Shown: positions 1 to 24,569, numbered from the whole stretch's first letter. The stretch is DNA of 63,918 bases, filler included, from 4 parts of 4 records of this genome joined end to end with filler, not necessarily neighbours in it, one strand, 5' to 3'. Translations and numbers: made by a program. Notes: generated from the sequence alone by a model not told the origin.

Positions 1-65
1 CTGTACTCGAAACTAATTAAAACTTATATAAGTGTGGTGAAGTAAAAAAAGGAGGGAAGAGGAAC

Positions 66-1304
66 ATGAAAAGAGTTTTGTGGTTAATATCTATTCTGAT
101 GCTTTTTTTGTTTAGTATGAGCTATTCTGAAACGCAAGAACTTCAGGAAGCAACACCTTTTCAAATAATTGAAATAATGATTGAAGAGGGAGCTTATACT
201 CAGGCAGAAGAGATGTTTCAATTACTAAGTTCGTCAGAACAAGATAGCTTTAAGTACTATTATTTAATGGGGAAACTGGAAAAAGAGAAGGGCAACAATC
301 AGGAAGCTTTGAATTTTTATATGCAGGCGAGTGAAAAAGAACCTGCAAATATTGCTGTAAGGGTAGCAATATTAAAACTAAAAATTCAAAATAATGAAAA
401 ACCTAGTGAAATCAGAAAAGAGATTAAGTCAATTTTGGTTCTAGATCTTAAGACAGAAGACAGAGAAGCTATTGAGGAAATAGCAAAAGTTTATGAAGAA
501 AGCATTCAACAGAAAAATTATCTTCTTAGTTTTTCAACTGGTCTCGGAACAACAGATAATGTTTATGAAACAAAAGATGATAAAAAATCAGATGTATATG
601 CAGATACAAGATTAACAGTTGCGCATAAAATGTCGTTAGCAAATGAAATTAATCTGACTAGTTTTGCTTCATATGGAAATAAACTTTATTTTAGTGAATC
701 TGAAAAAACAAGTCATAATATCTATATTGGAACTGAGCCGGAAAAAGAGATATCTGACTGGGTATTATCGACACCTTTAACTTATAACACTAATTCAGAA
801 GATGGAGAGACAGTTTCAAGTGGTTTTTCTTTAGGACTAAAAGGAAAGCGAAAAATTTATGAAGATATGTTATTAACGACAGGATTAGATTTAATTAGTA
901 CTCAAAATGATCTAAGCGATTATGAGGGAACTTCTGTATTTCTATTTGCAAATGTAAATCTTAATGTAATGCAGGGAATTAATATAACTCCTGAGCTTAG
1001 CTTGGAAACTACAAGTTATGATGAGGATAGTGAAAATTACACGGCATTTGCAGCTAAAATCGGTGGAAAAAAACTTATTAGAGAAAAATATATGGTAAAT
1101 GCTTCATATAAAATTACATCAAAATCATACGATGATAGAAGTGATCTTAATCATAATCTAAACGCAAATATGGAAGCCGGACTTCTGGCGACTAAATGGA
1201 AATATATAGTTGGGTATAATATCAGAATGAATGATTCAGACTCAAGTTCAAATGAATATACTGTAAATAATTTGTCACTAAAAGTTAAAAGAGAATTTAA
1301 TTAG
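66..1304 (+). CDS. TPR + C-terminal outer-membrane beta-barrel protein (Slam/DUF560-like architecture), cassette 1
   Basis: Signal peptide; TPR-like helices (YYYLMGKLEKEKGNNQEALNFYMQA); about 260 aa of alternating amphipathic strands ending LSLKVKREFN; paralog of 4708 and 14294. Confidence 0.75.
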   Translation: MKRVLWLISILMLFLFSMSYSETQELQEATPFQIIEIMIEEGAYTQAEEMFQLLSSSEQDSFKYYYLMGKLEKEKGNNQEALNFYMQASEKEPANIAVRVAILKLKIQNNEKPSEIRKEIKSILVLDLKTEDREAIEEIAKVYEESIQQKNYLLSFSTGLGTTDNVYETKDDKKSDVYADTRLTVAHKMSLANEINLTSFASYGNKLYFSESEKTSHNIYIGTEPEKEISDWVLSTPLTYNTNSEDGETVSSGFSLGLKGKRKIYEDMLLTTGLDLISTQNDLSDYEGTSVFLFANVNLNVMQGINITPELSLETTSYDEDSENYTAFAAKIGGKKLIREKYMVNASYKITSKSYDDRSDLNHNLNANMEAGLLATKWKYIVGYNIRMNDSDSSSNEYTVNNLSLKVKREFN

Positions 1305-1316
1305 GAGGTGTGATTA

Positions 1317-2294
1317 ATGAAAAAACTAGTATTATTGATGCTTATATTGATATTTACTTTATCATCATTTGCAGCCTCTGAATTGGATTCGTTATTAAAA
1401 GATGATTCAGAAGCTTTTGATGAACTGTTATTAGATGAAAATGGTAATGCTGCAAAGGATGTTTTGGTTGAAGAGTTAATAGGTCAGGCATTTTTGCAAC
1501 ACGATAGTTCAGATAAGTGGCTTCAAATAATTGAAAAAACTATAATTAAAGAAAAAGATACTGTAATAACAATGGAAAATTCATCAATGAGAGTCAGAAT
1601 GGAAGACGAAACATTTATAAATGTAGGTTCAAGAACTAAACTTTACTTTGAAACTCTTAGAGGAAAACCGGAAGAGGAGCTTATAAGTGAAACGGGACTT
1701 AAGCTTGCTTGGGGAAAAGTATTTTCTAATGTAAGAAAAAAACTTGAAAGTGGTGGAAAATATGAAGTAGAAGCCGGAGGTATAGTTGCCGGTGTAAGAG
1801 GGACACAGTACTTAACTTCATTAACAAAAGTAGGAGAAGTAAGTGTTAAAGTTTATGAAGGGAATGTATTTGTTGTACCTGTAGAAGTGCATAGAGCCAG
1901 AGAAGCTGCAAAGAAAAAAGCTGCATCAGAGTCAACAACAGAAACGACAACAACAGAGACTGAAACAGAAGTAGTAGAGACAACTGAAGAAGTTGTTGTA
2001 GAAGCTAATGAGGAAATAAGTGTTTCTGAGACAGGTATAATAAGTGAGATAACAATTCATAATGAAACTGCTCCTGTTAGTCTGGAAACAGGAAATGACA
2101 TTACTGAAGAGATAAAAGAGATAAAAGAGGAAACAAAAGATAAAGAGGTTTCAACAGAAGAGAAGAAAGAAAGTTCGACTGAAGATAATGAATTATTAGA
2201 AACAGTAACAGATGTAGAGCAGCAAGCAACTTCAACTGTCGAAGAGGTTGATACATCAAGTTCAGGTGTAGATGTGAAAGTAAATATAAGATAA
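1317..2294 (+). CDS. Secreted FecR-domain protein with acidic linkers, cassette 1
   Basis: Signal peptide ending SSFA; FecR motifs (DTVITMENS, AGVRGT, VKVYEGNV); E/T-rich linkers; C-terminus GVDVKVNIR; RBS AGGAGG. Confidence 0.85.
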   Translation: MKKLVLLMLILIFTLSSFAASELDSLLKDDSEAFDELLLDENGNAAKDVLVEELIGQAFLQHDSSDKWLQIIEKTIIKEKDTVITMENSSMRVRMEDETFINVGSRTKLYFETLRGKPEEELISETGLKLAWGKVFSNVRKKLESGGKYEVEAGGIVAGVRGTQYLTSLTKVGEVSVKVYEGNVFVVPVEVHRAREAAKKKAASESTTETTTTETETEVVETTEEVVVEANEEISVSETGIISEITIHNETAPVSLETGNDITEEIKEIKEETKDKEVSTEEKKESSTEDNELLETVTDVEQQATSTVEEVDTSSSGVDVKVNIR

Positions 2295-2345
2295 TATCAA
2301 ATAGTTTTTAACTATAATCGTAAAAAATTAAGGGGTGAATAATAA

Positions 2346-3668: not shown

Positions 3669-3702
3669 AAAATAAAAAGGAATCTAATTCGAGGTGTTTA
3701 CT

Positions 3703-4458
3703 ATGAGGAAATTAGTAATAATATTGTTTTTAATATGTTTTTCGATTTTTTCATTTTCAGCTTCAGAATTAGATTCCTTATTACAGGATGATAATGAAAC
3801 TTTTGATGAACTGACAGCAGAAAAAGAAGCTTTAGTACCCAAAGAGGTATTTGTAGAGGAGTTAAGCGGAGAGGCCTTTGTCCAAAGAGAGGGCAGTACA
3901 AAATGGTTGCAGTTGATAGAAAAATCTTCGATTCAAGAAAAAGATACAGTTATTACTATGGAAAAAAGCAGTTTGAAAATTAGAATGGAAAAAGAGGTAT
4001 ATATAAATATTGGTGAAAAAACCAAACTTTATTTTGACACTTTGAAGGGAAAACCTGAGAGTGAAGTATTGATAGAGACTGGTTTGAAGCTTGCTTTTGG
4101 GAAAGTTTTTTCTAATGTAAGAAAAAAGCTGGAAATAGGCGGTAGATATGAGATAGAAGCCGGAAGTATAGTTGCCGGTGTAAGAGGCACACAATATTTG
4201 GCTCGTTTAAACAAAGAGGGCGAGATAAATGTAAAAGTGTATGAAGGAAGAGTATATTGTAGATTTATAGATGAAAAAGGGGAGACGATTAAAAAGAAAA
4301 AAACAGAAGATGCAGAAGAAGTTTCAGAGGTTGTATTGGGAGCAAATGAAGAGTTTACTATCGTAGAGGGAGATACAGGTTGGCTTAAAATCCCGCATAG
4401 TGAAACGGCACCAATTGATCATAATAAAATAAACAAAACTTCTGATGAGCTTTATTAA
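3703..4458 (+). CDS. Short secreted FecR-domain protein lacking the C-terminal acidic tail
   Basis: ATG 3703 follows RBS GAGGTG (ORF track starts at GTG 3694); ASELDSLL, AGVRGT and VKVYEGRV motifs. Confidence 0.85.
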   Translation: MRKLVIILFLICFSIFSFSASELDSLLQDDNETFDELTAEKEALVPKEVFVEELSGEAFVQREGSTKWLQLIEKSSIQEKDTVITMEKSSLKIRMEKEVYINIGEKTKLYFDTLKGKPESEVLIETGLKLAFGKVFSNVRKKLEIGGRYEIEAGSIVAGVRGTQYLARLNKEGEINVKVYEGRVYCRFIDEKGETIKKKKTEDAEEVSEVVLGANEEFTIVEGDTGWLKIPHSETAPIDHNKINKTSDELY

Positions 4459-4558
4459 AATATTAAGTAAAAGAGAATTATAAATAAGAAAAAGCTGATA
4501 TTAACAAAATAGTGTAAATATTAATTACAACTAATAGTGAAAGAGCAGCGATATGGAG

Positions 4559-4588
4559 ATGCTGGAATATAATTTCCAGTATTTTTTT
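4559..4588 (+). terminator. Rho-independent terminator after cassette 1
   Basis: ATGCTGGAA-TATAAT-TTCCAGTAT hairpin followed by a T run. Confidence 0.7.
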
Positions 4589-4707
4589 GTTTTTTATGAT
4601 ATTAAAATTTTTTTTAATATTTTTTACGCAAAGTCAAATTAAGGGATTTTTTAGAACAAATCAAAATACTCTGTTTTCTTTGACTTAAAAAATATACAAG
4701 GAGGTAA

Positions 4708-5955
4708 ATGATGAAAAAGAAAAAGATACTTCTAATGTTTCTAGTATCTTTGTGCATAAGCTCGTTTTTTAATTTGCTTTATGCAGAAGATGGCTTGAAA
4801 GAAGCTACTCCAATGCAATTCATTGCAATTTTAATTGAAAATGATGCATTGGATACAGCTGAGGAATTACTGGATTCTTTGACCAGAAAGGAAAAAAAGA
4901 CTTATGAATATTTTTATCTTTCGGCCAAATTAGAAGAGGGAAGAGAGGATAATGATAAAGCAATTAAATTTTATCAAAAAGCTTGGGAAAAGGATAAGGA
5001 GAATTTAGTTCCAAGGTTAAATATTCTTTCAATTTATATCAGGGATAAAAAATACAAGAAAAAGATAAAAAAAGAGTTGAAAACAATTTCCAAATTAGAC
5101 ATGACAGAGGATGAGAGAAAAGAGTTTGAAACATTAAAAGAATTATTTGAAGAAGAAAAACAAAAAAATTATATGTTAAGTTTAGTTATTGGAGCAACTG
5201 CTACAGATAATGTAAATAGTACTAAGGAAGATCTGGAATCAGACACAATAGCAAATTTAAACTTAGCTTTTGCACATCAAAAAATAACAGAAAATAAATT
5301 AGTGCTAATAAGTTTTGTATCATATTCAAACTCTACTTATAGTACATTTTCTGAGAATAGTTCAAATACATTTGTTGCTGGATTTGAACCTGGAAAGAAT
5401 TTTAAATCTTGGCAGGTATCAGCTCCTTTGGTAGTAAACTATACTTTAGAAGATGGTGAAGAAAGCTCAAAAGGTTATTCGTTTGGCTTAGGACTAAATA
5501 AAATATTTAAAAACCAAGCAAATATTGGTTTAGGAACTGATATTATTTATACTGACAATGTAGCTTCAGAATATAAGGGGAACTTATTAGCTTATTATTT
5601 AGAATTTGGTTTTAAGGCCAAATCGGGCAGAGGGTATAGCCTGATTGTAGATGCTGAATCAACGGATTATGATTTGGAAAGTGAAAATTATTCCGGACTT
5701 GGTGGAACTATTTCAACAGACAAATTATATGCTGAAAAATACTTAACTTCTCTTAGTTATAGTGTACTTCAAAAGGATTATGATATTGATAGAGAGGATT
5801 TGAATCATATAATTGATGCAGATTTAAAGGCAAATGTATTTAAAACTAAATGGAAATATATTTTAGCTTATAGTTATATAATGAATGATTCAAATTCAGA
5901 AGATTATGAATATACAACAAATGAGATATCACTAAAACTTAAAAGAGATTTCTAA
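4708..5955 (+). CDS. TPR + outer-membrane beta-barrel protein, cassette 2
   Basis: Signal peptide ending LYA; TPR helices; amphipathic strands; terminal Phe (SLKLKRDF); start may be ATG 4711 given AGGAGG spacing. Confidence 0.78.
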   Translation: MMKKKKILLMFLVSLCISSFFNLLYAEDGLKEATPMQFIAILIENDALDTAEELLDSLTRKEKKTYEYFYLSAKLEEGREDNDKAIKFYQKAWEKDKENLVPRLNILSIYIRDKKYKKKIKKELKTISKLDMTEDERKEFETLKELFEEEKQKNYMLSLVIGATATDNVNSTKEDLESDTIANLNLAFAHQKITENKLVLISFVSYSNSTYSTFSENSSNTFVAGFEPGKNFKSWQVSAPLVVNYTLEDGEESSKGYSFGLGLNKIFKNQANIGLGTDIIYTDNVASEYKGNLLAYYLEFGFKAKSGRGYSLIVDAESTDYDLESENYSGLGGTISTDKLYAEKYLTSLSYSVLQKDYDIDREDLNHIIDADLKANVFKTKWKYILAYSYIMNDSNSEDYEYTTNEISLKLKRDF

Positions 5956-5967
5956 GGAGGTGGAAAA

Positions 5968-7290
5968 ATGAAAAAAATATTTTTAATACTTTTAATAATA
6001 ATTTTAAATCTAACTTCATTTGCAGCCTCTGAATTAGATAGTTTATTACAAGATGACGAGGATGTATTTAGTGAATTAGTAAGTGATGATGATTCCTTGG
6101 AAGCAAAAGAAGCGTATGTAGAGGAACTAATAGGTCAGGCTTTCGTACAACGAGAAGAGGCAGAGAAATGGTTTCAGATAGTAAAAGATACTGCGATAAA
6201 AGAAAAAGATACAGTGCTGACGATGGAAAATTCAAGTATGAAAATCAGAATGGAAGATGAAACATATATTAATGTAGGTGCTAAATCAAAACTTTATTTT
6301 GCAACTATGAGAGGTAAACCGGAAACAGAGCTTATGACAGAGACGGGACTTAAGCTTGCTTTTGGAAAAGTGTTCTCCAATGTAAGAAAGAAACTTGAAA
6401 AAGGTGGACGTTATGAAATAGAAGTCGGAAGTGTGGTTGCCGGTGTAAGAGGAACGCAGTATGATGTTAGTATAGATAAAAAAAAGGAAGTAAAAATTAA
6501 GGTATATGAAGGAAAAGTAATTGTATTACCAACAGAAATATATATTCAACAACGAGAAGCTGAAAAGAAAAAAGAAGAAGAGGAGAAGCAAGAAGAGGCA
6601 GCAGCTGAGGACAGCGACGATGATACAAGTGAAGATGATGGAGAAAATGCGGCAACTGATGAGAGCGAAGAAGATACTGACGAATCTGTAGAAGAAGACA
6701 CTTCGGAAGAAACAGATGAACAAACTACTGAAGAACAAGCCTCAGCAGAGGAAGCTAAAGCAGAAGAAACACCTGAGGAAAAACTTCCCGAGGAACAACC
6801 AATCCTGATAGAGGAAACTGTAGCAAATGAGGAAGCTGTGGAAATAGCTGTAGAGACTCAGTCTGAAACTCTTGCATTTGAAACAGAGGGTATAGTAGTA
6901 AATGCTAATGAGGAAATAAATGTCGAAATATCAGGTTCAATTGGAGATATAGTTGTGCATAATGATGTTGCTCCAACTCAAATAGTTCAAAAAACTGCGG
7001 TTCAAGAGCAGATAGAAGTGATAAAAGAGGAAGCAGCTGAAGTTTTAAAGATAACGCCGGAAGAACTTAAAAAGAAAAAAGAAGAAGCTTCTGCGGAAGA
7101 AGAAAGTGAAGAAGAACAAACTGAAGAGGAAAAACAGGATGAAGAAACTCAGGCAGTTTCAGAAGAGACTTTAATAGACCAACAACTTGATCTTGAAACA
7201 GTAATTGAGGATCTGGTGACTCCTCAAGATATACCTGAAACTGTGGTTACTGAAACACCAAGAGGAAATATATCAGTTAAAGTTAAATAG
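5968..7290 (+). CDS. Secreted FecR-domain protein with long acidic linkers, cassette 2
   Basis: Signal peptide ending TSFA; ASELDSLL; AGVRGT; E/D-rich insert; C-terminus RGNISVKVK. Confidence 0.85.
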   Translation: MKKIFLILLIIILNLTSFAASELDSLLQDDEDVFSELVSDDDSLEAKEAYVEELIGQAFVQREEAEKWFQIVKDTAIKEKDTVLTMENSSMKIRMEDETYINVGAKSKLYFATMRGKPETELMTETGLKLAFGKVFSNVRKKLEKGGRYEIEVGSVVAGVRGTQYDVSIDKKKEVKIKVYEGKVIVLPTEIYIQQREAEKKKEEEEKQEEAAAEDSDDDTSEDDGENAATDESEEDTDESVEEDTSEETDEQTTEEQASAEEAKAEETPEEKLPEEQPILIEETVANEEAVEIAVETQSETLAFETEGIVVNANEEINVEISGSIGDIVVHNDVAPTQIVQKTAVQEQIEVIKEEAAEVLKITPEELKKKKEEASAEEESEEEQTEEEKQDEETQAVSEETLIDQQLDLETVIEDLVTPQDIPETVVTETPRGNISVKVK

Positions 7291-7314
7291 AGGGATGAAC
7301 GGAGGTGTAGATAA

Positions 7315-8844
7315 ATGAAGCGAGTATTTACATTGCTACTAACATTATTAATATTAGTAATGTTACTCCCGGGTTGTATAGGGGAGAAGATAGCAAATAC
7401 AGATAAAAGTGTTGGAATGGTTAGTTTTTCCGGAACTTGGCCGGAAAACACCTGGAATGAAGATAGTGAAGATTCAGAAGTTTCAAAATCCATTTACTCT
7501 GAAACAGGATCAATAACTTTGATTTTGACTAATGGAACAGTTACCAGAACTAAAACAGTTTCAAGGAGTTCGTCTCAAGAAGAGTTTACTATTAGTTTTT
7601 TAGAAGTGCTGGTGGGAGCGTGGACTCTGACACTTGAAATATATGACCTGACAGGAGAAAAAGTTGGCTCAAAATCACAAACTATTAATGTAATAGAGGG
7701 TGATAATTCTGTTAGTATAGTTATGCTGCCGACGGATTACACTATAGGCCCGGCTAACTATGCGGAACTATTTTTACCGGATTCATTCCCAAGATGGATT
7801 GGCTCGATATCATATCATTATGAGATGATGGGATATCTTGATGTGGATGAGATAGAAGTAGGATTAGCTGACGCATATGTTGATACAGATAATAACAGCT
7901 ATTTTTATAAAGGACAAGTGTACTATTGGGGTTGGGTTAATAATCTAAGTGAAGGTGACTCTAGCTCATCGGAAAGTTCTATATATGTTGGAGATGTAGC
8001 AACAGGATCCGGAATAGTTGCTACAATGGATTATACTTACACGGGAGAAATGGTTACATCAGCTGCATATGAGAATACTGCAAGTTTTACTCAAACAGCT
8101 TCAATTACTTATACTGATGCAGGAAGAATAGATACAATGACCGAAACAGTTGGTACTACATCTTCATCGATTACTTTTGCTTATTCCGGAGGAAATGTTT
8201 CATCAGTTTATTTTGAAGGATCTGATGAGCCCTATAGCTTAAACTATTGGTCTGAATCAGTTAGTAAGCTTGAATCAGATACTGAAGCAGATAATAATGG
8301 AAATGTTCAGAGAGAGAATTCTTATACATGGAATAGTTCAAATTCAGAGCAACTTCAGCAATCAGTAATGACCGAATATGATGTAAATGATGAAGACGGA
8401 GATAACAATATTACAGAGAAGCGTTATGAATATGTGACTGATTGTACATATAATTCGAGTGATCAACTTACTCAGGCTGTTAGAACAGGAACATCTTATT
8501 TGGACGATTCTTCTGATTGGCAGCATACTTTTGAATATGTTTATGATTCAACAACAGGTGTAATTGACTACTTTACAATGTCAGAAGAAGAAGAGGAACC
8601 GGACAGTTCATCTGACTATAATAATAATGACACTCAAGATAAGTATACAACTAAAAAAGTTACAGTAGATTTTGAATATGATTCATCGAACAGGGTAGTA
8701 AGAGTGGATTATATATTAGATGACTATTCATATGCATATAATGAAGGAGAATATGATTTAACAACGAGCAGTGAAACAATGTTTTATGAATTAATTAGTT
8801 ATGTAGAAGATGCTGCAACTGAAGTAGTCGTTGAAATCAAATAG
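7315..8844 (+). CDS. Lipoprotein Lp2 (Ig/pilin-like + YD-like beta domain)
   Basis: Lipobox LPGC; GTWP...SKSIY; GPANYAELFLP; ends ATEVVVEIK. Confidence 0.8.
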   Translation: MKRVFTLLLTLLILVMLLPGCIGEKIANTDKSVGMVSFSGTWPENTWNEDSEDSEVSKSIYSETGSITLILTNGTVTRTKTVSRSSSQEEFTISFLEVLVGAWTLTLEIYDLTGEKVGSKSQTINVIEGDNSVSIVMLPTDYTIGPANYAELFLPDSFPRWIGSISYHYEMMGYLDVDEIEVGLADAYVDTDNNSYFYKGQVYYWGWVNNLSEGDSSSSESSIYVGDVATGSGIVATMDYTYTGEMVTSAAYENTASFTQTASITYTDAGRIDTMTETVGTTSSSITFAYSGGNVSSVYFEGSDEPYSLNYWSESVSKLESDTEADNNGNVQRENSYTWNSSNSEQLQQSVMTEYDVNDEDGDNNITEKRYEYVTDCTYNSSDQLTQAVRTGTSYLDDSSDWQHTFEYVYDSTTGVIDYFTMSEEEEEPDSSSDYNNNDTQDKYTTKKVTVDFEYDSSNRVVRVDYILDDYSYAYNEGEYDLTTSSETMFYELISYVEDAATEVVVEIK

Positions 8845-8857
8845 GGAGGTGATTTGA

Positions 8858-10312: not shown

Positions 10313-10321
10313 GTGATGACA

Positions 10322-11734: not shown

Positions 11735-11750
11735 AAAGGAGAAATAGTCT

Positions 11751-14090
11751 ATGTTTAGAAAAAGGATACTTGCAATAGGAATGGCTTTAAGTTTATTTTT
11801 TAGTATAGGCTATTTCCTATATGTGAATTTAAATCTTACTTTTTTTGAATTCTTTGAGTTAAAAACTTATGATATGAGATATAAGTTTAGAGAAATAGTA
11901 AAAGATAAAACTGAACGGGATTATGATGTTATAATCGTCGGAGTTGATGAAAGAAGTTTAATCAAGATTGGTAAATGGCCTTGGAGTAGAGACATTCACG
12001 GTAAACTAATTAAAATTTTAAAAGAATACGGTATTAAAAGTGTAGGTTTTGACGTTTCTTTTAGTGAAGCCGGAGCATCGTCAGAGTTTCAAGGCTATAA
12101 AAAAGATCTAAAAACTATTGTAGCTCAAGGTTATAAAGGTGGAGAAATAAGTGAAGAAAAAGCTGTAGATCTGTTAAAGAAGATAAATACTCTGAAAACA
12201 GATGAGGATTATCAATTTGCAGCAGCTCTGAAGGAAACCGGAAATACAGTAATTGGAACATATAATGTAATGAGTGAAGAGGAAGCTATCGATGAGAGTG
12301 TTTTCGAAAACGATCATTATCAAAAAACAAGGTTTGTAGCTGTTGAAGGAATAATGGATGAAATAATCGAAGTTGGAAGAACCGGCGAGAGAAGAGTGAA
12401 ACCTTTTGAAATTTATAAAATTATTCCTCCGATAGATTTAATAGGAAAATTTGCATTTGGGATAGCTCCATTTGAAGTTGGGGAGCCAGATCCTGATGGA
12501 GTATTGAGAGGAGTTGTTTTAGTAACAAAGGAATCTCTTACCAATCTATATTTTCCACCCCTTTATTTAGTAACGTATCTAAAAGCTATGGGGTTATCAA
12601 TGGCTGAGAATGTTTCATTTAATATGAGAGATTCTAAAATTGAAATCTATAACGGTCCTATGAATGATGATAATTTGTTCAAAGTAATTCCAACAAATAA
12701 GAATGGTTATCAAAGGTTGTTTTTCTATGGGAAAGGACATACATTTAAATATATATCATATTATGATATATTAAATGGTTTAGCTGACCCGGAGGATTTT
12801 AAGGATAAAATTGCATTGGTAGGTTATACGGATTCAGCAAAAGGTCTGTATGACTTGAGAGCAACGCCTCTTGACCCTAATACGCCGGGAGTTGAACTTC
12901 ATGCAACGGCTATTCAAAATGTAATTGATGATAAATTTATGACCAGAGCAGAAGTATTACCAACTATGCTTGCAATATTTGTTTTTGCAGCTTTTATTAC
13001 ACTGTCTACCGGTGCTAAACAGATGAATACTGTAGCGGCTAGTGGAATATCAATCTTGGTAATTATACTGTATGTAGTATTTTCATATATGTTATTTGAG
13101 AATGGTGTTTGGATTGAGACATTTTACCCTATATTTGCGTTTATTATTCTTTTTTCAGCTTTGGAAGCATTTAATTATCTTTTTGAAGAGGGAGAGAAGA
13201 GATATATTAAAAATGTATTTGGTCACTATATCAGTCCTGATTTGGTTCAAGATTTAATCAAATCACCTGAAATGCTTAAGCTTGGAGGAGAAAAAAAGGA
13301 GTTGACGGCATTTTTCTCAGATATTCAAGGATTTACATCGATCTCTGAAGCTCTTGATCCGGAAGAATTGGTAGAATTTTTAAATGAGTATTTGTCCTTA
13401 ATGACTGAAATTATCCTAAAACACAATGGAACTATTGATAAATATATCGGTGATGCAATTATGGCAATATTTGGGGCTCCGGTTAATCTCGAAAATAATG
13501 CTTTAAGTTGCTGTTATGCAGCTCTTGAATATCAAGAAAGATTAGAACAACTTCGGGAAAAAAATGAAAAAGAAGGAAAACAAATTTTTTATGCAAGAAT
13601 TGGTATAAATACCGGAGATATGGTTGTTGGAAATATGGGTTGTGAAGTTGGAGAGATAAAAAAATTCAACTATACAATCATTGGAGATGAAGTAAACCTG
13701 GCTGCTCGTCTTGAGGGTGCTAATAAAATGTATGGAACTTTTATCATGATAAGTGAGAATACATATCAAAGAGTAAAAGACTACTTTGAAGTACGAATTT
13801 TAGATAGAGCGAAAGTAAAAGGTAAGAAAAAAGCTGTACAAACTTATGAATTAATGGGTAAAAAAGGTGAAGTTGTAGAGAAACTAATGAAAGTGAAAGA
13901 GTTATATGATCATGGAATGGAGTGTTATTTTGCTCAAAACTGGGACGAAGCAGATGAAGCATTCAAGGCAGCGCTTGATGTAAACCCTGCTGACGGGCCT
14001 TCAAAACTTTATATTAAAAGAATTGAAGAATATAAGGAAACTCCGCCACCTGAAAACTGGGATGGAAGTTATACATTCACTTCAAAATAA
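11751..14090 (+). CDS. CHASE2-domain class III adenylate cyclase with C-terminal TPR-like tail
   Basis: N-terminal TM; CHASE2 motifs (IIIVGVDERSL, GKWPWSR, DPDGVLR, PGVELHA); three TMs; FSDIQGFT, DKYIGDAIMAIFG (Lys points to ATP specificity), NYTIIGDEVNLAARLEGANK; PPENWDG tail. Confidence 0.93.
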   Translation: MFRKRILAIGMALSLFFSIGYFLYVNLNLTFFEFFELKTYDMRYKFREIVKDKTERDYDVIIVGVDERSLIKIGKWPWSRDIHGKLIKILKEYGIKSVGFDVSFSEAGASSEFQGYKKDLKTIVAQGYKGGEISEEKAVDLLKKINTLKTDEDYQFAAALKETGNTVIGTYNVMSEEEAIDESVFENDHYQKTRFVAVEGIMDEIIEVGRTGERRVKPFEIYKIIPPIDLIGKFAFGIAPFEVGEPDPDGVLRGVVLVTKESLTNLYFPPLYLVTYLKAMGLSMAENVSFNMRDSKIEIYNGPMNDDNLFKVIPTNKNGYQRLFFYGKGHTFKYISYYDILNGLADPEDFKDKIALVGYTDSAKGLYDLRATPLDPNTPGVELHATAIQNVIDDKFMTRAEVLPTMLAIFVFAAFITLSTGAKQMNTVAASGISILVIILYVVFSYMLFENGVWIETFYPIFAFIILFSALEAFNYLFEEGEKRYIKNVFGHYISPDLVQDLIKSPEMLKLGGEKKELTAFFSDIQGFTSISEALDPEELVEFLNEYLSLMTEIILKHNGTIDKYIGDAIMAIFGAPVNLENNALSCCYAALEYQERLEQLREKNEKEGKQIFYARIGINTGDMVVGNMGCEVGEIKKFNYTIIGDEVNLAARLEGANKMYGTFIMISENTYQRVKDYFEVRILDRAKVKGKKKAVQTYELMGKKGEVVEKLMKVKELYDHGMECYFAQNWDEADEAFKAALDVNPADGPSKLYIKRIEEYKETPPPENWDGSYTFTSK

Positions 14091-14121
14091 TAATATGATT
14101 TCTTATATAAAAATTAAGCAA

Positions 14122-14164
14122 AAGGGCTACAGTGTATCTTACACTTAGCCCTTATTTTGTTTTG
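14122..14164 (+). terminator. Rho-independent terminator after the cyclase
   Basis: AAGGGCTA(C)AGTGTA-TCT-TACACTTAGCCCTT hairpin plus T-rich tail. Confidence 0.7.
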
Positions 14165-14214
14165 TTTGAAAAAAGATTCAAAGATCAATATATTGTGCAA
14201 ATTGAATATAAATA

Positions 14215-14223
14215 TGTTATAAT
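14215..14223 (+). promoter_or_regulatory. Extended -10 promoter element for cassette 3
   Basis: TGTTATAAT (TGn-TATAAT) about 70 bp upstream of the 14294 start. Confidence 0.5.
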
Positions 14224-14293
14224 AGTGATGACTATTTTGGTTTTTTGAATGGAATATGGGATGATTTTGAAATATAATTAAGGGGTTTTTAGC

Positions 14294-15940
14294 ATGGCAA
14301 AAAAGGGATTAGCAATTTTAATAATGATTCTAATAAGTATAACAGGTATTTTTTATGTTGCTTATAGAAACTCTACCAGCATTGAAGAAAAATCTAGCGA
14401 ACAAGTATCTGTAAAAGAAGATAACAAAAAAATACTTGAAGAATTCAACGAAGTGAAGACTCGTGTAATAGAGAAAGCTGAAAAAAAACCTGAAAAAATT
14501 GAAATTGAAGATAAAAAAGCAGTAATAACTAAGATAGCAAAAGAAAAAGGAAATGAAAATAAGAGCATAATTATTAAGAAAATAGTTGAAAAACCAATAA
14601 AAAAACAAGAAATCAAACAAAAAGAGTTTGAAGATAAAAAAACTGAAGATCAAGTTGAATTTGAAATTATTGAAAAGGAAAAAATAATTGAAGTAGAGAA
14701 ATTAGCTAAAATTCCTGTTAAAACTACTATAGAATTAGAAAATGAGAAATTTATAGTAAAAGAAAAAATAGAGATAAAAGAAGCTGAAGAAGTTGATCAA
14801 GCACAATTAATTGGAATTATGATTGAGCTTGATAACTATAGTGTTGCAGAAGAGATGTTAGGCGAAATGTCTGACAAAGATTCTTATGATTATTATTTTC
14901 TTTCTGCAAAGCTTGCTGAAGGACAGGGAGAAACTAAAGAAGCCTTGGAACTGTATGAAAAAGCTTATGAAAAAGATGAAACAAATCCCATTCCTAGATT
15001 AAGAATATTAAGAGTTTATATTAGAAATAAAAAATATAGAAGAAGAATAAAAAGAGAATTAAAATTAATATCAGAACTTGAAATGACTGAAAGTGAAAGA
15101 AAAGAGTTTGAAGTTCTTAAAAAATTACTAAATAAAGACGAGAGATTTAAGCATCTTTTTAGAATTTCAACAGGAGTGACTGTAACAGATAATGTTGAAA
15201 GTGATTATGAAAATGAACAGTCAGATTTTAAATCAACACTTAGCTTAACCTACTTAAATCTATTTAAGATAAATGATAAATACTCTTTAACGAGTTTTGC
15301 TTCATATTATAATGAGATGTATGCTGAAACAAATGAGAAAAGCTCTCACAGTATATTTGTCGGGACGGAGTTAAACAGAACTTTTGATAAATGGAAAATA
15401 TCTGTTCCCTTAATGTTAAGTTATAGTATGGTTGATAATGAAGAAGCTGTTAGAAGTACTTCGCTTGGATTAGAAGCAACAAAATTAGTAAATGATAGCT
15501 TAAGTACATCTTTTGGAGTAAATGTTGAACCAATGGTTAATACTCTATATGATTTTGATGGAAATGAATACTTTTCATTTGCGAATTTAGAATGGCAAAA
15601 AGATAAATCAACAAACTATAAATTTGAAATAACTGCTGAACAGGCATCTTACTCTGAAGAGAGTGAGAATTATAACGGATATGGAGCTGAGATATCCAGA
15701 CAGAAGCTTTATAAGGAAAAGTATGACTTAGAATTAAAGTATAATGTGATATTTGAAAATTATACAGAAGATAATAGAGATGATTTAGTTCATCTCTTTG
15801 ATATAAGTTTAAAATCAAATCTATTTAATACTAAATGGGAGTATATTTTAGCTTATGGGCTTGAAATTGCTGACTCAAATTATACTGAATATGAGTATCA
15901 AAAAAATGAATTATCTATTAAATTGAGAAGAGATTTTTAG
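14294..15940 (+). CDS. TPR + outer-membrane beta-barrel protein with N-terminal hydrophobic segment and K/E-rich extension, cassette 3
   Basis: C-terminal ~380 aa align by eye with 4708 (YYFLSAKL, PRLRIL, TDNV, KWEYILAY, IKLRRDF); about 140 extra K/E/I-rich residues. Confidence 0.75.
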   Translation: MAKKGLAILIMILISITGIFYVAYRNSTSIEEKSSEQVSVKEDNKKILEEFNEVKTRVIEKAEKKPEKIEIEDKKAVITKIAKEKGNENKSIIIKKIVEKPIKKQEIKQKEFEDKKTEDQVEFEIIEKEKIIEVEKLAKIPVKTTIELENEKFIVKEKIEIKEAEEVDQAQLIGIMIELDNYSVAEEMLGEMSDKDSYDYYFLSAKLAEGQGETKEALELYEKAYEKDETNPIPRLRILRVYIRNKKYRRRIKRELKLISELEMTESERKEFEVLKKLLNKDERFKHLFRISTGVTVTDNVESDYENEQSDFKSTLSLTYLNLFKINDKYSLTSFASYYNEMYAETNEKSSHSIFVGTELNRTFDKWKISVPLMLSYSMVDNEEAVRSTSLGLEATKLVNDSLSTSFGVNVEPMVNTLYDFDGNEYFSFANLEWQKDKSTNYKFEITAEQASYSEESENYNGYGAEISRQKLYKEKYDLELKYNVIFENYTEDNRDDLVHLFDISLKSNLFNTKWEYILAYGLEIADSNYTEYEYQKNELSIKLRRDF

Positions 15941-15949
15941 GAGGCTGAA

Positions 15950-17287
15950 ATGTTGAAAAAAATAATATTACTTATATTTTTATCTGTTTTTTCAATTACT
16001 TGTTTTTCAGCTTCTGAATTAGATAGTTTATTGAAAGATGATGACGATTTATTTAGTGACCTTATTTCTGAAGAAGACACTTTAGTTCCCAAAGATGCTT
16101 TTGTTGAGGAGTTGTTTGGACAGGTGTTTCTTCAACACGAAGGAAGTAGCAAATGGCTGCAAGTGATAGAAAATTCAGTTGTTAAGGAGAAGGACACTGT
16201 TTTAACAATGGAAAATTCTGGTGTTAAGATCAGAATGGAAGAGGAAACATATATAAATTTGGGTTCAAGATCAAAAATTTATTTTGAGACCTTACTTGGA
16301 AAACCTGATGTAGAACTGATGACAGAAACGGGGCTTAAATTAGCATGGGGAAAAGTTTACTCAAATGTTAGAAAAAAGCTTGAAAAAGGTGGAAGGTATG
16401 AAATAGAAGCCGGAGGAGTTGTAGCCGGAGTAAGAGGAACTAAGTTTGAAGTTGAAGCCGAAAAAACCGGAGAAGTAAAAGTAAAGGTGTTTGAAGGAAA
16501 AGTATTTGTACTTCCATTAGAAGTTTATAATCAAAAAAAAGAGGAAGCTAAAAAAGCTTCAGAAGAGGATGGCGAAAACTCTCAAGAACAAACTGATGAA
16601 GAAAATGAGTCAGAAGAGAACTCAGAAGAAAATGAAAATTCTCAAGATGATTCTTCTGAAGAAAATGAAGATAATAATGAACAGGAAGAAGAAAACTCAG
16701 AAGCGAATAAAGAAGTAAATGAAGAGGCTAAAACTTCAGAAAACGAAGAAAACATAGTTGAACAAGCAAGCGAGCAAGCTAAAATAGAAATTGAGACAGA
16801 AATTGAACAGGAATTAGATGAGAAAAAAGAGATTCAAATGGATAATCTCTTAGATGAAATAATTTTAGGTTCTGATGATGAGCTTAATATAGATCAAGAT
16901 GGCTTAGTTGCTGAACTAAGTAAACATGATGATGAAGCACCTGTGGAACTAGCTAAATCAAGTGAAGTAAGTGCTGAAATTCAACAAGTTACAGAAGATG
17001 CTAAAGAAGAGGAAGATGAAAAACAATTAAATCAGAATGTTTCTAATAAAAATGAAGCTGATGATGAAGAAAGTGAAGAAGAAGAGACAACTGAAGAGGA
17101 AGAAGAAACAACTGTTGCAGAGGAAATCCCGGAAGAGCTAGAAGAAGAAACATTATCAGAGGAGATAATCCCTGATAAAATTCCTGAGGAAGAGATAGAT
17201 GAAATAGAGCAAACAGTAAAAGAAACAGTAGAAGAAGTTGTTGAGGAAAATACTTCTGTAGGGAAATTAATAATTGAGATTAAATAA
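15950..17287 (+). CDS. Secreted FecR-domain protein with long acidic linkers, cassette 3
   Basis: Signal peptide; ASELDSLL; AGVRGT; E/N-rich insert; ends VGKLIIEIK. Confidence 0.85.
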   Translation: MLKKIILLIFLSVFSITCFSASELDSLLKDDDDLFSDLISEEDTLVPKDAFVEELFGQVFLQHEGSSKWLQVIENSVVKEKDTVLTMENSGVKIRMEEETYINLGSRSKIYFETLLGKPDVELMTETGLKLAWGKVYSNVRKKLEKGGRYEIEAGGVVAGVRGTKFEVEAEKTGEVKVKVFEGKVFVLPLEVYNQKKEEAKKASEEDGENSQEQTDEENESEENSEENENSQDDSSEENEDNNEQEEENSEANKEVNEEAKTSENEENIVEQASEQAKIEIETEIEQELDEKKEIQMDNLLDEIILGSDDELNIDQDGLVAELSKHDDEAPVELAKSSEVSAEIQQVTEDAKEEEDEKQLNQNVSNKNEADDEESEEEETTEEEEETTVAEEIPEELEEETLSEEIIPDKIPEEEIDEIEQTVKETVEEVVEENTSVGKLIIEIK

Positions 17288-17313
17288 TTTCGAAGTATTG
17301 GGGGTGAAGGAGA

Positions 17314-18831
17314 TTGAAAAATAATTTACAAATATTAATAGTCTTGCTAATAACGCTTCTGTTATCAGCGTGCATTGGTGATAATATTGCTAACATAGAT
17401 GAAGGTGTAGGAAGCATAATCATTTCAGGAAGATGGTCTGGGGAAATGAGTAATAAATCAAGCAGTATTTCACGGACAATTTACTCAGAAGCCGGCTCAA
17501 TAGAGGTTACGCTAACAAAAGATTCGCAGGAAATAAGTCAAACTGAAACAAGAACATCTGATTCAACATCATTTTATATTGTTATGGATGATGTAGAGAT
17601 AGGTGATTGGACAATGACTCTGATTATATATGATTATGATGGTCAGGAAGTTGGAAGGACAAGTGAGAGTGTAAGCGTAAATTCAGGAGATAACCCGGTG
17701 GATTTACTTGTAACTCCTAATGACTACTCCATAGGCCCTGCAAATTATGCTGAATTATTTTTACCTGATAAATCTGCTGAAAATTATAGTTTGTTTTCTT
17801 GTCAATATGAAATCATGTCTTATTTAGATATTGAGGAGATTGATCTTTATACTGCTGATGCATATGTGAGATCAGATGTTTATAATAATCATACTGATTT
17901 TTTTAGTAAAAATCAAATTTTTTGCTGGAATTGGCCCAATATAACTGGATATGAAGAGGGAAGAGAAGATGTTGACAGCACTTATATCTCCTCTAATAGT
18001 GATGTGGCAGCAACGATGAAATATACTTATTCAGATGAGTATATTGTAGCGGCAACATATAGTAATGAAGCTGATTTTACTGAAAATGTAATTGTGACCT
18101 ATAATGATTCCGGAAAAATAAGCCAAGTTGAAAGTCTCACAGAAAAAGGAACTAGCACTTCAAATGAAAAACTGACATATTCATATGAAAACGGGATTTT
18201 AACCGTAGTAGAATCAGAAGTGGGAAACGGAACTCCTAAAACTCTAGAATATAATGATGGGTATCTCACTTCAAATATTGAGAAAGACTCAGATGGAAAT
18301 AAAGTAAGTGAACAAACATATACTTGGAACTCTTCTGAATTAAGCACTTTTAGTCATATAGAATATGATGTTAATGATTATGACGGAGATAGCAATACAA
18401 GCGAAATCAGATGGCAGAGAGATGCTACATATACTTATGATGAAGGTAAATTAAAAGAAGTTATGAATACAGATAAAATTCTATTAAGCGGTTATGAAAC
18501 AGATGAAAAAAAGGTTATTACATACAGCTATAATTCTAATGATGGCTTATCATCTATTTCGATAGTTAAGTATTATTATGAAGATAGTTTGAGTGATTAT
18601 AACGAAGATGATGAACAAGGGTTTTATGAGTCTAATAAAGTTGATATTAACTTTACCTATGATGATGACAACTTAGTTAGGAAAGTGAGCTACAATTATA
18701 CAACATATGATTATATTTATAACTCAGGAACTTTGGAATATGAAAGAACTGATACTGAAAATGAGATCTTCTATGAAAAAATTTATTATACATCTGATAG
18801 TGGCAGTGATGTTACAATCGGAGTTCAGTAG
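17314..18831 (+). CDS. Lipoprotein Lp5 (closest to Lp2)
   Basis: TTG start; lipobox LSAC; GRWS...SRTIYSE; GPANYAELFLP; ends GSDVTIGVQ. Confidence 0.8.
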   Translation: MKNNLQILIVLLITLLLSACIGDNIANIDEGVGSIIISGRWSGEMSNKSSSISRTIYSEAGSIEVTLTKDSQEISQTETRTSDSTSFYIVMDDVEIGDWTMTLIIYDYDGQEVGRTSESVSVNSGDNPVDLLVTPNDYSIGPANYAELFLPDKSAENYSLFSCQYEIMSYLDIEEIDLYTADAYVRSDVYNNHTDFFSKNQIFCWNWPNITGYEEGREDVDSTYISSNSDVAATMKYTYSDEYIVAATYSNEADFTENVIVTYNDSGKISQVESLTEKGTSTSNEKLTYSYENGILTVVESEVGNGTPKTLEYNDGYLTSNIEKDSDGNKVSEQTYTWNSSELSTFSHIEYDVNDYDGDSNTSEIRWQRDATYTYDEGKLKEVMNTDKILLSGYETDEKKVITYSYNSNDGLSSISIVKYYYEDSLSDYNEDDEQGFYESNKVDINFTYDDDNLVRKVSYNYTTYDYIYNSGTLEYERTDTENEIFYEKIYYTSDSGSDVTIGVQ

Positions 18832-18843
18832 GGAGGTGCTAAC

Positions 18844-20133
18844 TTGAAGAAAATAATATTAATTATGACTCTCAGTATATTTATGCTTTCAGCTTGTATC
18901 TCAAATATAAGCGGAGATGGAAATGTAGATCAAAATATCGAAGAATTAGAAAGCAATGTTACTTTAAATGTAAAATGGTCAGGGGAAAGTGAGACTCTTT
19001 CTACTTCGAAATTTATACATTATGATACCACTGAGATTCAAGTAGTGCTAACTAAAGGAGATTTAAAAGAGAGAGTTACTTTTGTAAGAGAAAGTGATGA
19101 AACAGAGGTTTCAAAAACTCTTAAAAATATAGAAACCGGAATTTGGACCGTAAATGTAGCATTAGATGATTCAAGTGGAGAAATTGCAACTAAACAGGAA
19201 ACAGTAATTATAGTTGAAGGAACAAATGAGATCACTATCGTTATGGATAGAGGAAATTATAGTAATAATCCTAAACTGTGGGAAGCTTTTTATCCAAATT
19301 ATGAATATAACTATCTGGGAAGTTTCTTTGGTATTCATGCAGTTGCTGCATTAGGGATTGAGACTATAGAAATTACTCTGACAGATAAACTGGGAGAGTA
19401 TGAAACTTTTTTACCTGTAAATATGTATTTGCCGCATTTTGATGATGATACTGACTCTAATTGGCTGGCAAGTGGAACTGGAGTTGTAGGAACTCTAACT
19501 TTTACATATGATAGTGATGATCAAATAACACAGGCTGTATATTCAAATGATTCAAATTACATAAGTACAACTACATTTACATATGATAGTGTGGGTGAGT
19601 TGACAACAGAGCAAACAGTAGTAACTTATAATGGAACGGAACAGTCAAATATTACGAAAACATTTGCATATGAAGACGGACTTCTAAGCGCAGTGAATTC
19701 TGATGATGGTGAAGTGATCTCTATAAGCTATAGTGACGGAAAACTATCAACTTTTAGTATAAGTGAGAACAGTGTGATAGTTTACTCAGAAAGCTATTCC
19801 TTATCAGGAGATGAAATAAGCAGAATAAATTATGATATTGTAACAGATAAATATGAGACATTTACTATAGATATTTCAACAAGTGGAGAACTTCATAGTA
19901 ATGTTAATACCTATACTTCGTCAAGTTCACCGAGTGCATTTGCCAGTGCAAGTTATTATGATGAGACTAAAATCGAGTATTCATTCTCTTTAGTTAATGA
20001 GGGAGAGAAAATAGTTTTTAACACTACAAATTCTCAAATTGATACAGTTGGGCTTTACTCTACAAGCTATTCAAGTGATACTCAGGTAGCTAGTCTAAAT
20101 ATTTCATATAAAACAACAGTAATTGATATTTAA
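18844..20133 (+). CDS. Lipoprotein Lp6 (closest to Lp3)
   Basis: TTG start after GGAGG; lipobox LSAC; VKWS...SKFIHYDT; YETFLP; ends SYKTTVIDI. Confidence 0.8.
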   Translation: MKKIILIMTLSIFMLSACISNISGDGNVDQNIEELESNVTLNVKWSGESETLSTSKFIHYDTTEIQVVLTKGDLKERVTFVRESDETEVSKTLKNIETGIWTVNVALDDSSGEIATKQETVIIVEGTNEITIVMDRGNYSNNPKLWEAFYPNYEYNYLGSFFGIHAVAALGIETIEITLTDKLGEYETFLPVNMYLPHFDDDTDSNWLASGTGVVGTLTFTYDSDDQITQAVYSNDSNYISTTTFTYDSVGELTTEQTVVTYNGTEQSNITKTFAYEDGLLSAVNSDDGEVISISYSDGKLSTFSISENSVIVYSESYSLSGDEISRINYDIVTDKYETFTIDISTSGELHSNVNTYTSSSSPSAFASASYYDETKIEYSFSLVNEGEKIVFNTTNSQIDTVGLYSTSYSSDTQVASLNISYKTTVIDI

Positions 20134-20147
20134 ATTTTTTAGTATTT

Positions 20148-20195
20148 AAAGGCTTCACCTATTTTAGATTTAATTTATAGGAGGGGCTTTTTTTT
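20148..20195 (+). terminator. Rho-independent terminator after cassette 3
   Basis: AAAGGCTTCACCTAT...ATAGGAGGGGCTTT imperfect hairpin followed by a T run. Confidence 0.55.
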
Positions 20196-20253
20196 CATAT
20201 TTTTTTCAAATATTTGTGTTAGAATATTATTATTAATAAAAAAAGGGGTTGTT

Positions 20254-20913: not shown

Positions 20914-20966
20914 AAGAAGCAAAATAGAAAAATTCAGATAAAATAATAAAAATGAGGTTGATGATA

Positions 20967-22391: not shown

Positions 22392-22593
22392 TAAATACCA
22401 AAGATAGTGCTCAGTTTGAAAATAAAATAAGTTATTTTCATGTAAAAAAATGACCCCTCATATAAAAAGTCACAGAAAACATTTTATTTTTTTCTTATAT
22501 TATTATATAATAATCCTAGATGAAAAAGATGTATATGTATTATTTGAGCTTATAGAGTTAACTAACATAAAGAAATGTATGCGGGGGGCATAG

Positions 22594-24393: not shown

Positions 24394-24540
24394 CATAAAC
24401 TGGAACTGTGAACTGATTTATAGTATAATAAATTAGTTGAGAGTTCCTTTTTTATTAACTAAAAATTTGTTTATACTCTGGGAAAGTATAAACTTGTGTC
24501 ATCTGATATGAAAACTTGATATTATATAAATTAAGGAACA

Positions 24541-24569
24541 TTGTTTGAGAAAATTTGTTGATATATAAT
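24541..24569 (+). promoter_or_regulatory. Sigma70-type promoter for the tandem HD-GYP gene
   Basis: TTGTTT-17 bp-TATAAT. Confidence 0.45.

Follow-up and report, generated by a model that had tools for sequence, protein, structure and literature searches.

The window considered here is a stretch of 63,918 nucleotides in which 4 parts of 4 records of one genome are joined end to end with filler. Bases 66-20133 of this window, at ~31% G+C, hold a locus of 14 open reading frames (ORFs), all on the + strand, that is organized around a single CHASE2 class III adenylate cyclase and is suggestive of a signalling system of the cell envelope (Table 1). Pfam matches and the translations sort the ORFs into four kinds: three proteins with a tetratricopeptide repeat (TPR) arm and a barrel (B1-B3), four FecR-domain proteins, six lipoproteins and the cyclase. 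Barrel, FecR and lipoprotein genes are arranged in three cassettes (66-4458, 4708-11734 and 14294-20133), each with a barrel gene, FecR coding capacity and 1-3 lipoprotein genes. An initial annotation, made from the sequence alone, had described this threefold order of TPR-barrel, secreted FecR and lipoprotein genes, with the cyclase 16 bp behind cassette 2 and ahead of a terminator. ORFs, Pfam matches and paralogy bear out the order, and the hairpin that follows the cyclase (z -5.19) bears out the rest; the FecR gene F1b was missing from that description, and it takes cassette 1 to 4458, instead of 3668. The genes follow one another as B1-F1-L1-F1b, B2-F2-L2a-L2b-L2c-cyclase and B3-F3-L3a-L3b, with gaps of 0-51 bp within each series, the 16 bp between L2c and the cyclase among them. 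A hairpin with a U-run lies 3' of F1b, of the cyclase and of L3b. Tight spacing and hairpins together mean that the locus reads as three transcription units, and the cyclase belongs to the second.

Table 1. Genes and terminator-like hairpins of the cyclase locus, in window coordinates (aa, amino acids; AF2, AlphaFold2).
Feature	Coordinates	Strand	Description	Evidence
B1	66..1304	+	Signal peptide, TPR arm and predicted 14-strand Slam-like barrel, 412 aa	TPR_19 28.4 bits; TPR_Slam 23.3 bits (cut-off 35.2); ends ...KREFN
F1	1317..2294	+	Predicted secreted FecR-domain protein with acidic tail, 325 aa	FecR 43.5 bits; signal peptide; tail 27% Asp/Glu; ends VDVKVNIR
L1	2346..3668	+	Acidic lipoprotein, lipobox LTSC, paralog of L2a-c and L3a-b	Signal peptide and lipobox
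F1b	3694..4458	+	Short FecR-domain protein without long acidic tail, 254 aa	FecR 43.1 bits; 53-65% identical to F1 and F2
Hairpin, end of unit 1	4555..4596	+	Terminator-like hairpin and T-run	13-pair stem; -17.1 kcal/mol, z -4.07
B2	4708..5955	+	TPR and predicted 14-strand Slam-like barrel, 415 aa; modelled copy	AF2, VIA-align, hhalign
F2	5968..7290	+	Predicted secreted FecR-domain protein, 440 aa; 250-aa tail, 34% acidic	FecR 51.2 bits; ends NISVKVK
L2a	7315..8844	+	Acidic lipoprotein, lipobox LPGC; predicted Ig-like sandwich and YD-repeat/porin-like beta domain; modelled copy	AF2; Foldseek; VIA-align; 40% to L3a
L2b	8858..10312	+	Acidic lipoprotein, lipobox LIGC; counterpart of L3b	Lipobox; 38% to L3b
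L2c	10313..11734	+	Acidic lipoprotein, lipobox LLSC	Lipobox; weak Big_13 match, 24 bits (cut-off 27)
Cyclase	11751..14090	+	CHASE2 class III adenylate cyclase with C-terminal TPR-like end, 779 aa	CHASE2 163 bits; Guanylate_cyc 96 bits
Hairpin, end of unit 2	14124..14168	+	Terminator-like hairpin and T-run	-22.2 kcal/mol, z -5.19
B3	14294..15940	+	Like B1 and B2, with additional ~140-aa Lys/Glu-rich insert, 548 aa	Pfam TPR; paralogy
F3	15950..17287	+	Predicted secreted FecR-domain protein, 445 aa; tail 40% acidic	FecR 50.3 bits
L3a	17314..18831	+	Acidic lipoprotein, lipobox LSAC; counterpart of L2a	Lipobox; paralogy
L3b	18844..20133	+	Acidic lipoprotein, lipobox LSAC; counterpart of L2b	Lipobox; paralogy
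Hairpin 3' of L3b	20148..20196	+	Hairpin followed by U-run, probable end of unit 3	Stem present; z over the whole 120 nucleotides not significant

The three cassettes are diverged copies of one another. The barrels are mutually 34-41% identical (E 1e-68 to 1e-95; B1 and B2, 39%), and the FecR heads, at 53-65% identity, are the most conserved part of the cassette. The six lipoproteins share 29-40% identity, with z values of 12-75 when Smith-Waterman scores are set against shuffled sequences, a procedure that reveals the likeness of L2b and L3b that simple pairwise comparison misses. Judged by these values, the repetition is true paralogy and not chance. L2a with L3a (40%) and L2b with L3b (38%) are the best lipoprotein pairs, so that cassettes 2 and 3 are colinear. 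Orthologs of individual barrels occur in other organisms: P0001 is 66% identical to B1, whereas P0002 (50%) and P0003 (40%) are closest to B3 and keep its Lys/Glu-rich insert. The existence of B1- and B3-specific orthologs indicates that cassette duplication predates the split of these organisms. The B3 insert, which follows the signal peptide and precedes the TPR arm within 14294-14800, is of mixed charge, in contrast to the purely acidic FecR tails. Further cassettes may lie upstream of window base 1, since the contig that spans the whole stretch (X1), probably the source of this DNA, begins at that base. Contigs from two estuary metatranscriptome runs (X2 and X3) map to B1, F1, L1, F1b, B2, L2b/L2c and the cyclase, and several of them span gene junctions. 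They hint that the cassettes and the cyclase are expressed; DNA carry-over could also account for them, and the contigs show no single transcript. Parts of cassette 3 have no contig cover, which, as only contigs were compared, proves nothing.

In the barrel proteins, TPR_19 scores 25.4-28.4 bits across B1-B3 (Pfam cut-off 25), and the C-terminal half has no family match above cut-off. An AlphaFold2 model of B2 is based on an alignment of 30 sequences that comprises the 3 window barrels, 25 profile-search matches and 2 barrels from a metagenome locus, L001. The model has a predicted local distance difference test (pLDDT) value of 92.6, with helical repeats at residues 35-152 followed by 14 strands at 155-414. 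Among 48,161 chains compared with VIA-align, its best matches are CymA (Z 22.8; 263 residues aligned, root-mean-square deviation 3.8) and OmpG (Z 20.5), both of them 14-strand barrels. Every Foldseek match is an outer-membrane barrel, and the TPR-barrel proteins BcsC and PelB are among them. The last residue of both B2 and B3 is Phe, which is frequent at the end of outer-membrane barrels. The proposal that the C-terminal halves would model as such barrels is therefore supported.

The initial annotation had also compared the TPR-barrel proteins with Slam, the surface lipoprotein assembly modulators of the type 11 secretion system (T11SS). Searched against 1.84 billion representatives, a profile built from the three window barrels alone recovers 144 proteins at E<=1e-3; of these, 16 reach E<=1e-10 and 8 reach E<=1e-30. 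Twenty-five of the 144, in which the match runs through the barrel, were kept; the other 119, almost all TPR-only by their matched columns, were dropped. Four of the 25 pass Pfam SlipAM (1e-9 to 1e-24), and in the 30-row barrel alignment SlipAM is found in 6 rows and TPR_Slam in 9 (E<=0.01). Alignment of the window barrel profile with five SlipAM-positive proteins by hhalign gives 99.5% (E 6e-23, 369 columns); one of the five, from metagenome locus L002, came independently, via its FecR neighbour. Because of the SlipAM-passing profile matches and the hhalign result, B1-B3 are assigned, by profile comparison, to the Slam/DUF560 superfamily as one of its distant branches, and together with the 14-strand fold and TPR arm these results uphold the proposed kinship. 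The homology appears at profile level only: in BLASTP, B2 against the L002 SlipAM barrel is not significant and against an L001 barrel reaches E 0.001, and the barrel profile finds only designed TPR proteins among Protein Data Bank (PDB) sequences. A DUF481 match in B1 (19.3 bits, cut-off 21.1) and BBP2_2 and DUF2860 matches in relatives were set aside as generic barrel resemblance.

Relatives of the cyclase and of the barrels indicate where the DNA comes from. Among its nearest named relatives, the cyclase is 61% identical to a protein from a Fusobacteriaceae metagenome-assembled genome (MAG), 52% to one from Haliovirga abyssi and 49% to one from a Fusobacteriia MAG, with Thermotogota (Marinitoga and relatives) at <=34%, and one barrel relative (P0007) is from Hypnocyclicus thermotrophus, a member of the Fusobacteriota. 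The window DNA therefore most likely derives from a marine Fusobacteriota lineage. The Slam/T11SS family has been described as proteobacterial in the accessible text of two papers (PMC12282271, PMC8406197), whereas the window barrels belong to a Fusobacteriota-like genome; they extend the Slam superfamily beyond Proteobacteria. Elsewhere in the window, a Por_Secre_tail domain (type 9 secretion sorting, 44.3 bits, cut-off 27), which would be unexpected in Fusobacteriota, is encoded at 50397-54776 (+) as part of a 1459-aa S8 subtilase with GEVED, cohesin and CarboxypepD_reg domains. On the opposite strand, 26013-39752 (-) encodes a 4579-aa RTX-repeat giant (HemolysinCabind 363 bits, HCBP_related and, weakly, BapA_N) that is probably a surface protein of adhesin type, and the ORF directly upstream of it, at 39742-40839 (-), has a weak RHS_repeat match.

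The FecR proteins are exported proteins with a common head and divergent tails. All four copies match Pfam FecR at 43-51 bits (cut-off 24), and each has an N-terminal signal peptide, with no membrane span and no cytoplasmic anti-sigma part. The tails of F1, F2 and F3 are 135-255 residues long, and 27-40% of these residues are Asp or Glu. The name of the FecR domain invites a reading as nutrient (iron) uptake of FecA/FecR type, in which the barrels would be receptors and the FecR proteins anti-sigma regulators, and FecR regulators do co-occur with hemophilin type 11 loci, where, in the accessible part of the report, FecR is an iron regulator (10.1101/2023.03.15.532718). This reading is highly implausible for the window: its FecR proteins have a cleavable signal peptide and lack the parts that would make them anti-sigma regulators, the scanned window ORFs include no extracytoplasmic function (ECF) sigma factor, TonB-dependent receptor or plug domain, and the barrels have 14 strands, not 22.

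A short terminal strand links the FecR proteins to the lipoproteins. F1, F2, F3, L2a, L2b and L3a, 6 of the 10 FecR and lipoprotein products, end in an alternating pattern of hydrophobic-x-hydrophobic-x-hydrophobic-Lys/Arg/Gln, which is thus common to two unrelated families, FecR tails and lipoproteins. It is absent from the ends of the 20 other window ORFs tested, of 268 fetched proteins and of the 73 remaining frames among 79 stop-to-stop frames of >=100 aa; as it was defined after the sequences were inspected, these statistics are descriptive only. FecR proteins of L001 likewise end in alternating strands. The shared strand could serve in targeting or strand pairing, in place of the absent TbpB-type barrel that usually marks Slam cargo.

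The lipoproteins form an acidic family of their own, each with 51-93 Asp and Glu against 21-32 Lys and Arg. An AlphaFold2 model of L2a, made from the six paralogs (pLDDT 71.2, pTM 0.71), has an Ig-like sandwich at residues 33-133, a short helical part and ~18 long beta strands at 177-496, with the last ten residues unplaced. For the strand array, Foldseek finds local matches to the YD-repeat shells of Rhs, teneurin and TcC proteins (E 4e-9 to 1e-5, TM scores 0.1-0.26), and VIA-align with residues ~150-498 finds Wzi (Z 12.5), VDAC (Z 11.6) and a soluble 'porin-like' Bacteroides lipoprotein, 4ghb (Z 9.5); Pfam RHS_repeat has no match in the lipoproteins at E<=0.01. The C-terminal domain of L2a can be read as an array of YD-like hairpins, curled into a shell that resembles a barrel and whose closure is uncertain at this level of confidence. 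In the predicted structure this sheet is much larger than the 8-strand barrel of TbpB-type cargo. The lipoproteins had been called 'pilin-like' in the initial annotation, a description that is rejected here: Pfam, Foldseek and VIA-align give no pilin-type match. A Protein Atlas search with L2a yields scores <=0.82 only, in unnamed clusters. The orphan family of acidic Ig/YD-barrel lipoproteins is new here.

The predicted topology of the cyclase places its sensory part in the periplasm: hydropathy and Pfam indicate a transmembrane segment at residues 6-24, a periplasmic CHASE2 domain at 25-401, three transmembrane segments at 402-478 and the cyclase domain at 515-702. D524, K564, D568, T642, N649 and R653 are invariant in an alignment of 27 sequences. 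We take D524 and D568 to be the metal-binding aspartates, K564 and T642 the adenine-specifying pair, and N649 and R653 the transition-state Asn and Arg, and the protein is expected to be an active adenylate cyclase. On the + strand at 20254-25804, 3' of cassette 3, lie genes for an OmpR-type regulator and a HAMP histidine kinase, followed by those for two HD-GYP proteins, the first of them with a HAMP domain; the cyclic AMP (cAMP) module thus adjoins probable c-di-GMP phosphodiesterases.

Contact between a FecR head and the CHASE2 domain, which the initial annotation had proposed as the route by which a signal reaches the cyclase, was assessed by complex prediction of CHASE2 residues 25-401 with F2 residues 20-200, run without the alignments built in this analysis. 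The scores are 0.62, 0.45 and 0.43 (median 0.45), compared with 0.16 for the best of 3 controls; the runs share >=80% of contacts, and partner pLDDT is >=75. Of 78 solved complexes, 51 reach the mark used for such scores, as do 2 of 108 mismatched pairs; at scores <=0.60, only 5 of those solved complexes reach it, and so does each of the 4 mismatches (of 180) that passed. The prediction lends weak support to a contact between the F2 head and the periplasmic domain of the cyclase: the median exceeds the control, but it lies in an error-prone band of scores. Taken with the conserved adjacency of the two genes, it modestly raises the odds of contact.

Barrel-FecR and FecR-CHASE2 adjacency both recur elsewhere. 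A scan of metagenome contigs for the FecR head confirms 3 loci among 335 pattern matches, and in all three a TPR ORF of ~437 aa lies directly upstream of the FecR gene. L001 (8601-19012, on a distant high-G+C contig) has the order barrel-FecR-lipoprotein twice and then a CHASE2 cyclase, and its barrels align with those of the window. The barrel of L002 (6936-10641) passes SlipAM (27.4 bits against a cut-off of 22) and is accompanied by a 792-aa FecR protein that ends in TbpB_B_D, the mark of Slam cargo. The contigs of L002 and L003 end at or inside the FecR gene, and in L002 and L003 (1468-3120) a Na+/H+ antiporter gene precedes the TPR barrel and FecR genes. Protein P0006 (455 aa), which belongs to another assembly, has a FecR head (49% identity to F1b and F2) joined directly to a B1-type barrel without a TPR arm; it arose either as a natural fusion or through a deletion that brought adjacent cassette genes together. 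Barrel relative P0265 and cyclase relative P0149 are probably on one contig, as are P0010 and P0166. In 72,556 plasmids, tblastn with the F2 head finds 7 records, all from Burkholderia or Paraburkholderia, and both of the 2 records inspected have the order regulator-FecR-CHASE2. On pSymB of Sinorhizobium meliloti, a 1219-aa ORF with FecR at residues 85-179, TPR at 397-606 and ~600 further residues abuts a CHASE2 cyclase; from its size and position, this ORF is presumably NsrA.

These loci bear on a reading in which the cassettes serve surface display only. The Slam-family barrel would be a type 11 pore for the lipoproteins, and perhaps for FecR, which would act as adhesins or binding proteins, and the cyclase would at most regulate them and receive no signal. 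Slam-superfamily homology and fold suit this reading, as does the L002 pairing of a SlipAM barrel with a FecR protein that ends in a TbpB_B_D cargo barrel; in the window, cassettes 1 and 3 sit in transcription units of their own without the cyclase, and the lipoproteins are variable, acidic and Ser/Thr-rich, like surface proteins. We nevertheless consider it unlikely. FecR and CHASE2 are also adjacent where there is no barrel, on the Burkholderia plasmids, and their FecR part is fused to the TPR chain beside CHASE2 in S. meliloti; within the window cassettes, conservation is highest in the FecR heads (53-65%), which is a better fit to a shared periplasmic partner than to diversifying cargo, and the FecR proteins and lipoproteins have no TbpB-type cargo domain.

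Four known systems are close to the locus in parts. In the NsrA-CyaK/CyaD1/CyaD2 system of S. meliloti, as in the window, FecR, TPR and an outer-membrane barrel lie directly upstream of a CHASE2 class III cyclase. The accessible text on this system describes NsrA as a receptor associated with the outer membrane on which signal perception by CyaK depends, as shown genetically, gives its barrel portion as residues 600-1200, and proposes that acidic surface parts bind a basic protein signal (PMC7529298). FecR and TPR-barrel are separate proteins in the window but a single chain in S. meliloti, and the window adds lipoprotein genes and has three modules for one cyclase. Its barrel is a 14-strand Slam-type one, without detected homology to the ~600-aa C-terminal half of the pSymB ORF. 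Slam/T11SS proteins (SlipAM PF04575, DUF560; Slam1/2, NilB, HrpB) share with the window a periplasmic TPR arm, a 14-strand barrel and adjoining lipoprotein genes; by contrast, the window barrels fall under Pfam thresholds and their neighbours lack a TbpBBD or lipoprotein C cargo barrel. In Campylobacterota, CHASE2 cyclases are described in the accessible text as mostly clustered with a phosphodiesterase, a FecR-domain protein and a TPR-domain protein (PMC9239204). Like the window, this cluster combines CHASE2 cyclase, FecR-domain and TPR-domain proteins; unlike the window, it has a cAMP phosphodiesterase, its TPR protein is not recognised there as a Slam-type barrel, and that text reports no lipoprotein family and no multiplication. 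The Burkholderiales 'BiofilmReg' operon, given in the accessible part of its report as regulator / LysM-FecR / CHASE2 histidine kinase / DUF4136 (PMC5192318), likewise has a secreted FecR protein directly upstream of a CHASE2 sensor, and its members are the nearest plasmid-borne relatives of the window FecR head; it differs in its histidine kinase output, in having no outer-membrane barrel and in a LysM domain that replaces the acidic tail.

The statement of the initial annotation that FecR, TPR and barrel genes occur beside CHASE2 elsewhere is thus well founded, with L001, the Burkholderia plasmids, pSymB and the Campylobacterota cluster (PMC9239204, in its accessible text) as instances. Its companion statement, that no description of the combination was known, stands in part: a CHASE2 cyclase/FecR/TPR cluster is in print (PMC9239204) and a fused NsrA-like form is present on pSymB, whereas a pairing of FecR or CHASE2 with a Slam-type barrel was not found in print. 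Within the literature searched, mostly that outside subscription journals, no publication pairs DUF560 with FecR, and CHASE2 and Slam together return unrelated matches only; CHASE2 is absent among the matches listed for DUF560, Slam, T11SS and surface lipoprotein assembly modulator. The accessible text of one paper on the type 11 family mentions neither FecR nor CHASE2 nor cyclase (PMC12282271). New here are the Fusobacteriota-like phylum, the arrangement of three cassettes and four FecR heads around one cyclase, the lipoprotein family and the shared terminal strand.

On balance, we lean towards a reading in which three diverged input modules of the outer envelope serve one CHASE2 adenylate cyclase, as a split and multiplied device of NsrA-CyaK type built on a Slam-family barrel. 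Each module would consist of a Slam/DUF560 14-strand barrel with a periplasmic TPR arm, a Sec-exported FecR protein and 1-3 acidic outer-membrane lipoproteins. The barrel-lipoprotein assembly would meet an external or envelope cue at the outer membrane, the periplasmic FecR head would contact the CHASE2 domain, and cAMP synthesis would change on that contact. With four conserved FecR heads, several alternative antennae, distinguished by their lipoproteins and tails, would be able to converge on one cyclase. The analysis itself establishes gene content, paralogy, predicted folds, kinship with the Slam superfamily, the recurrence of barrel-FecR and FecR-CHASE2 neighbours and the intact cyclase residues. 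We infer the physical contacts, the direction of signalling, the surface exposure of the lipoproteins and the ligand, which may be cationic given the strongly acidic tails and lipoproteins. Export of the lipoproteins and threading of the FecR tails by the barrels are likewise inference only.

Several results weigh against this reading. The CHASE2-F2 score falls in a weak band in which passes are more often wrong than right unless there is a good prior. In Pfam, B1-B3 have no SlipAM match even at E 0.01 and their TPR_Slam scores are below cut-off, and neither the window FecR proteins nor the lipoproteins have a TbpB_B_D domain, the C-terminal 8-strand barrel that is the hallmark of Slam cargo. 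Alignment of the window barrels with the C-terminal two thirds of the pSymB ORF by hhalign covers the TPR only, at 24%; with a single target sequence, homology of the barrels could have been missed. The lipoproteins of L001 are Big_5/NosD/DUF1565 beta-helix proteins unrelated to those of the window, so that in different lineages the third cassette position is occupied by unrelated lipoproteins. Relatives of the window lipoproteins appear in neither the Protein Atlas nor a PDB sequence search, nor in word-indexed searches; the latter, made with B2 and with the six-lipoprotein alignment, were empty probably because Lys/Glu-rich and Ser/Thr-rich words swamped the candidates, and are thus no evidence of absence. 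Neither the cyclase nor the FecR alignment brings up a confirmed relative when species genomes are scanned, and Pfam finds no cAMP receptor gene among the window ORFs.

The same adjacency and fold evidence would also fit an envelope-stress sensor without export, in which lipoproteins that are periplasmic or plug the barrel would tell the cyclase, via FecR, of damage to the outer membrane or of its assembly state, with no external ligand. RcsF with outer-membrane proteins and LptE with LptD are the lipoprotein-barrel comparisons for such a sensor. In its favour, a large barrel-like sheet is predicted for the C-terminal domain of the lipoproteins, the known Slam cargo domain is absent from the window FecR proteins and lipoproteins, and the two-component system and two HD-GYP genes directly after cassette 3 make a signalling neighbourhood. 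Against it, barrel homology is to a translocon family and not to a sensor scaffold, and three diverged lipoprotein sets suggest diversity of ligands rather than one housekeeping stress signal. We regard this sensor as decidedly unlikely.

The preferred reading, with three modules for one cyclase, can be carried further, to a modular multi-antenna receptor. In this form, each barrel would display its own lipoproteins and hold its cognate FecR tail, and the terminal strand, in replacement of a TbpB-type barrel, would link tail, lipoprotein and pore; the four interchangeable heads would compete for CHASE2, with their inputs summed into one cAMP output. Such an elaboration is speculative and is probably not correct in full.

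To our knowledge, what CHASE2 domains sense has been an open question since the family was defined, and Sinorhizobium NsrA-CyaK is the sole worked case. In the locus described here, logic of NsrA type is split into separate genes in a different phylum, so that three pairings can each be tested on their own: FecR head and CHASE2, barrel and lipoprotein, and tail and barrel. The locus also suggests a non-canonical cargo signal for a barrel of the Slam superfamily. Hypnocyclicus thermotrophus, which has a related barrel, or Haliovirga abyssi, which has a related cyclase, could serve as an experimental host in which to study how these envelope modules may inform a single cyclase.

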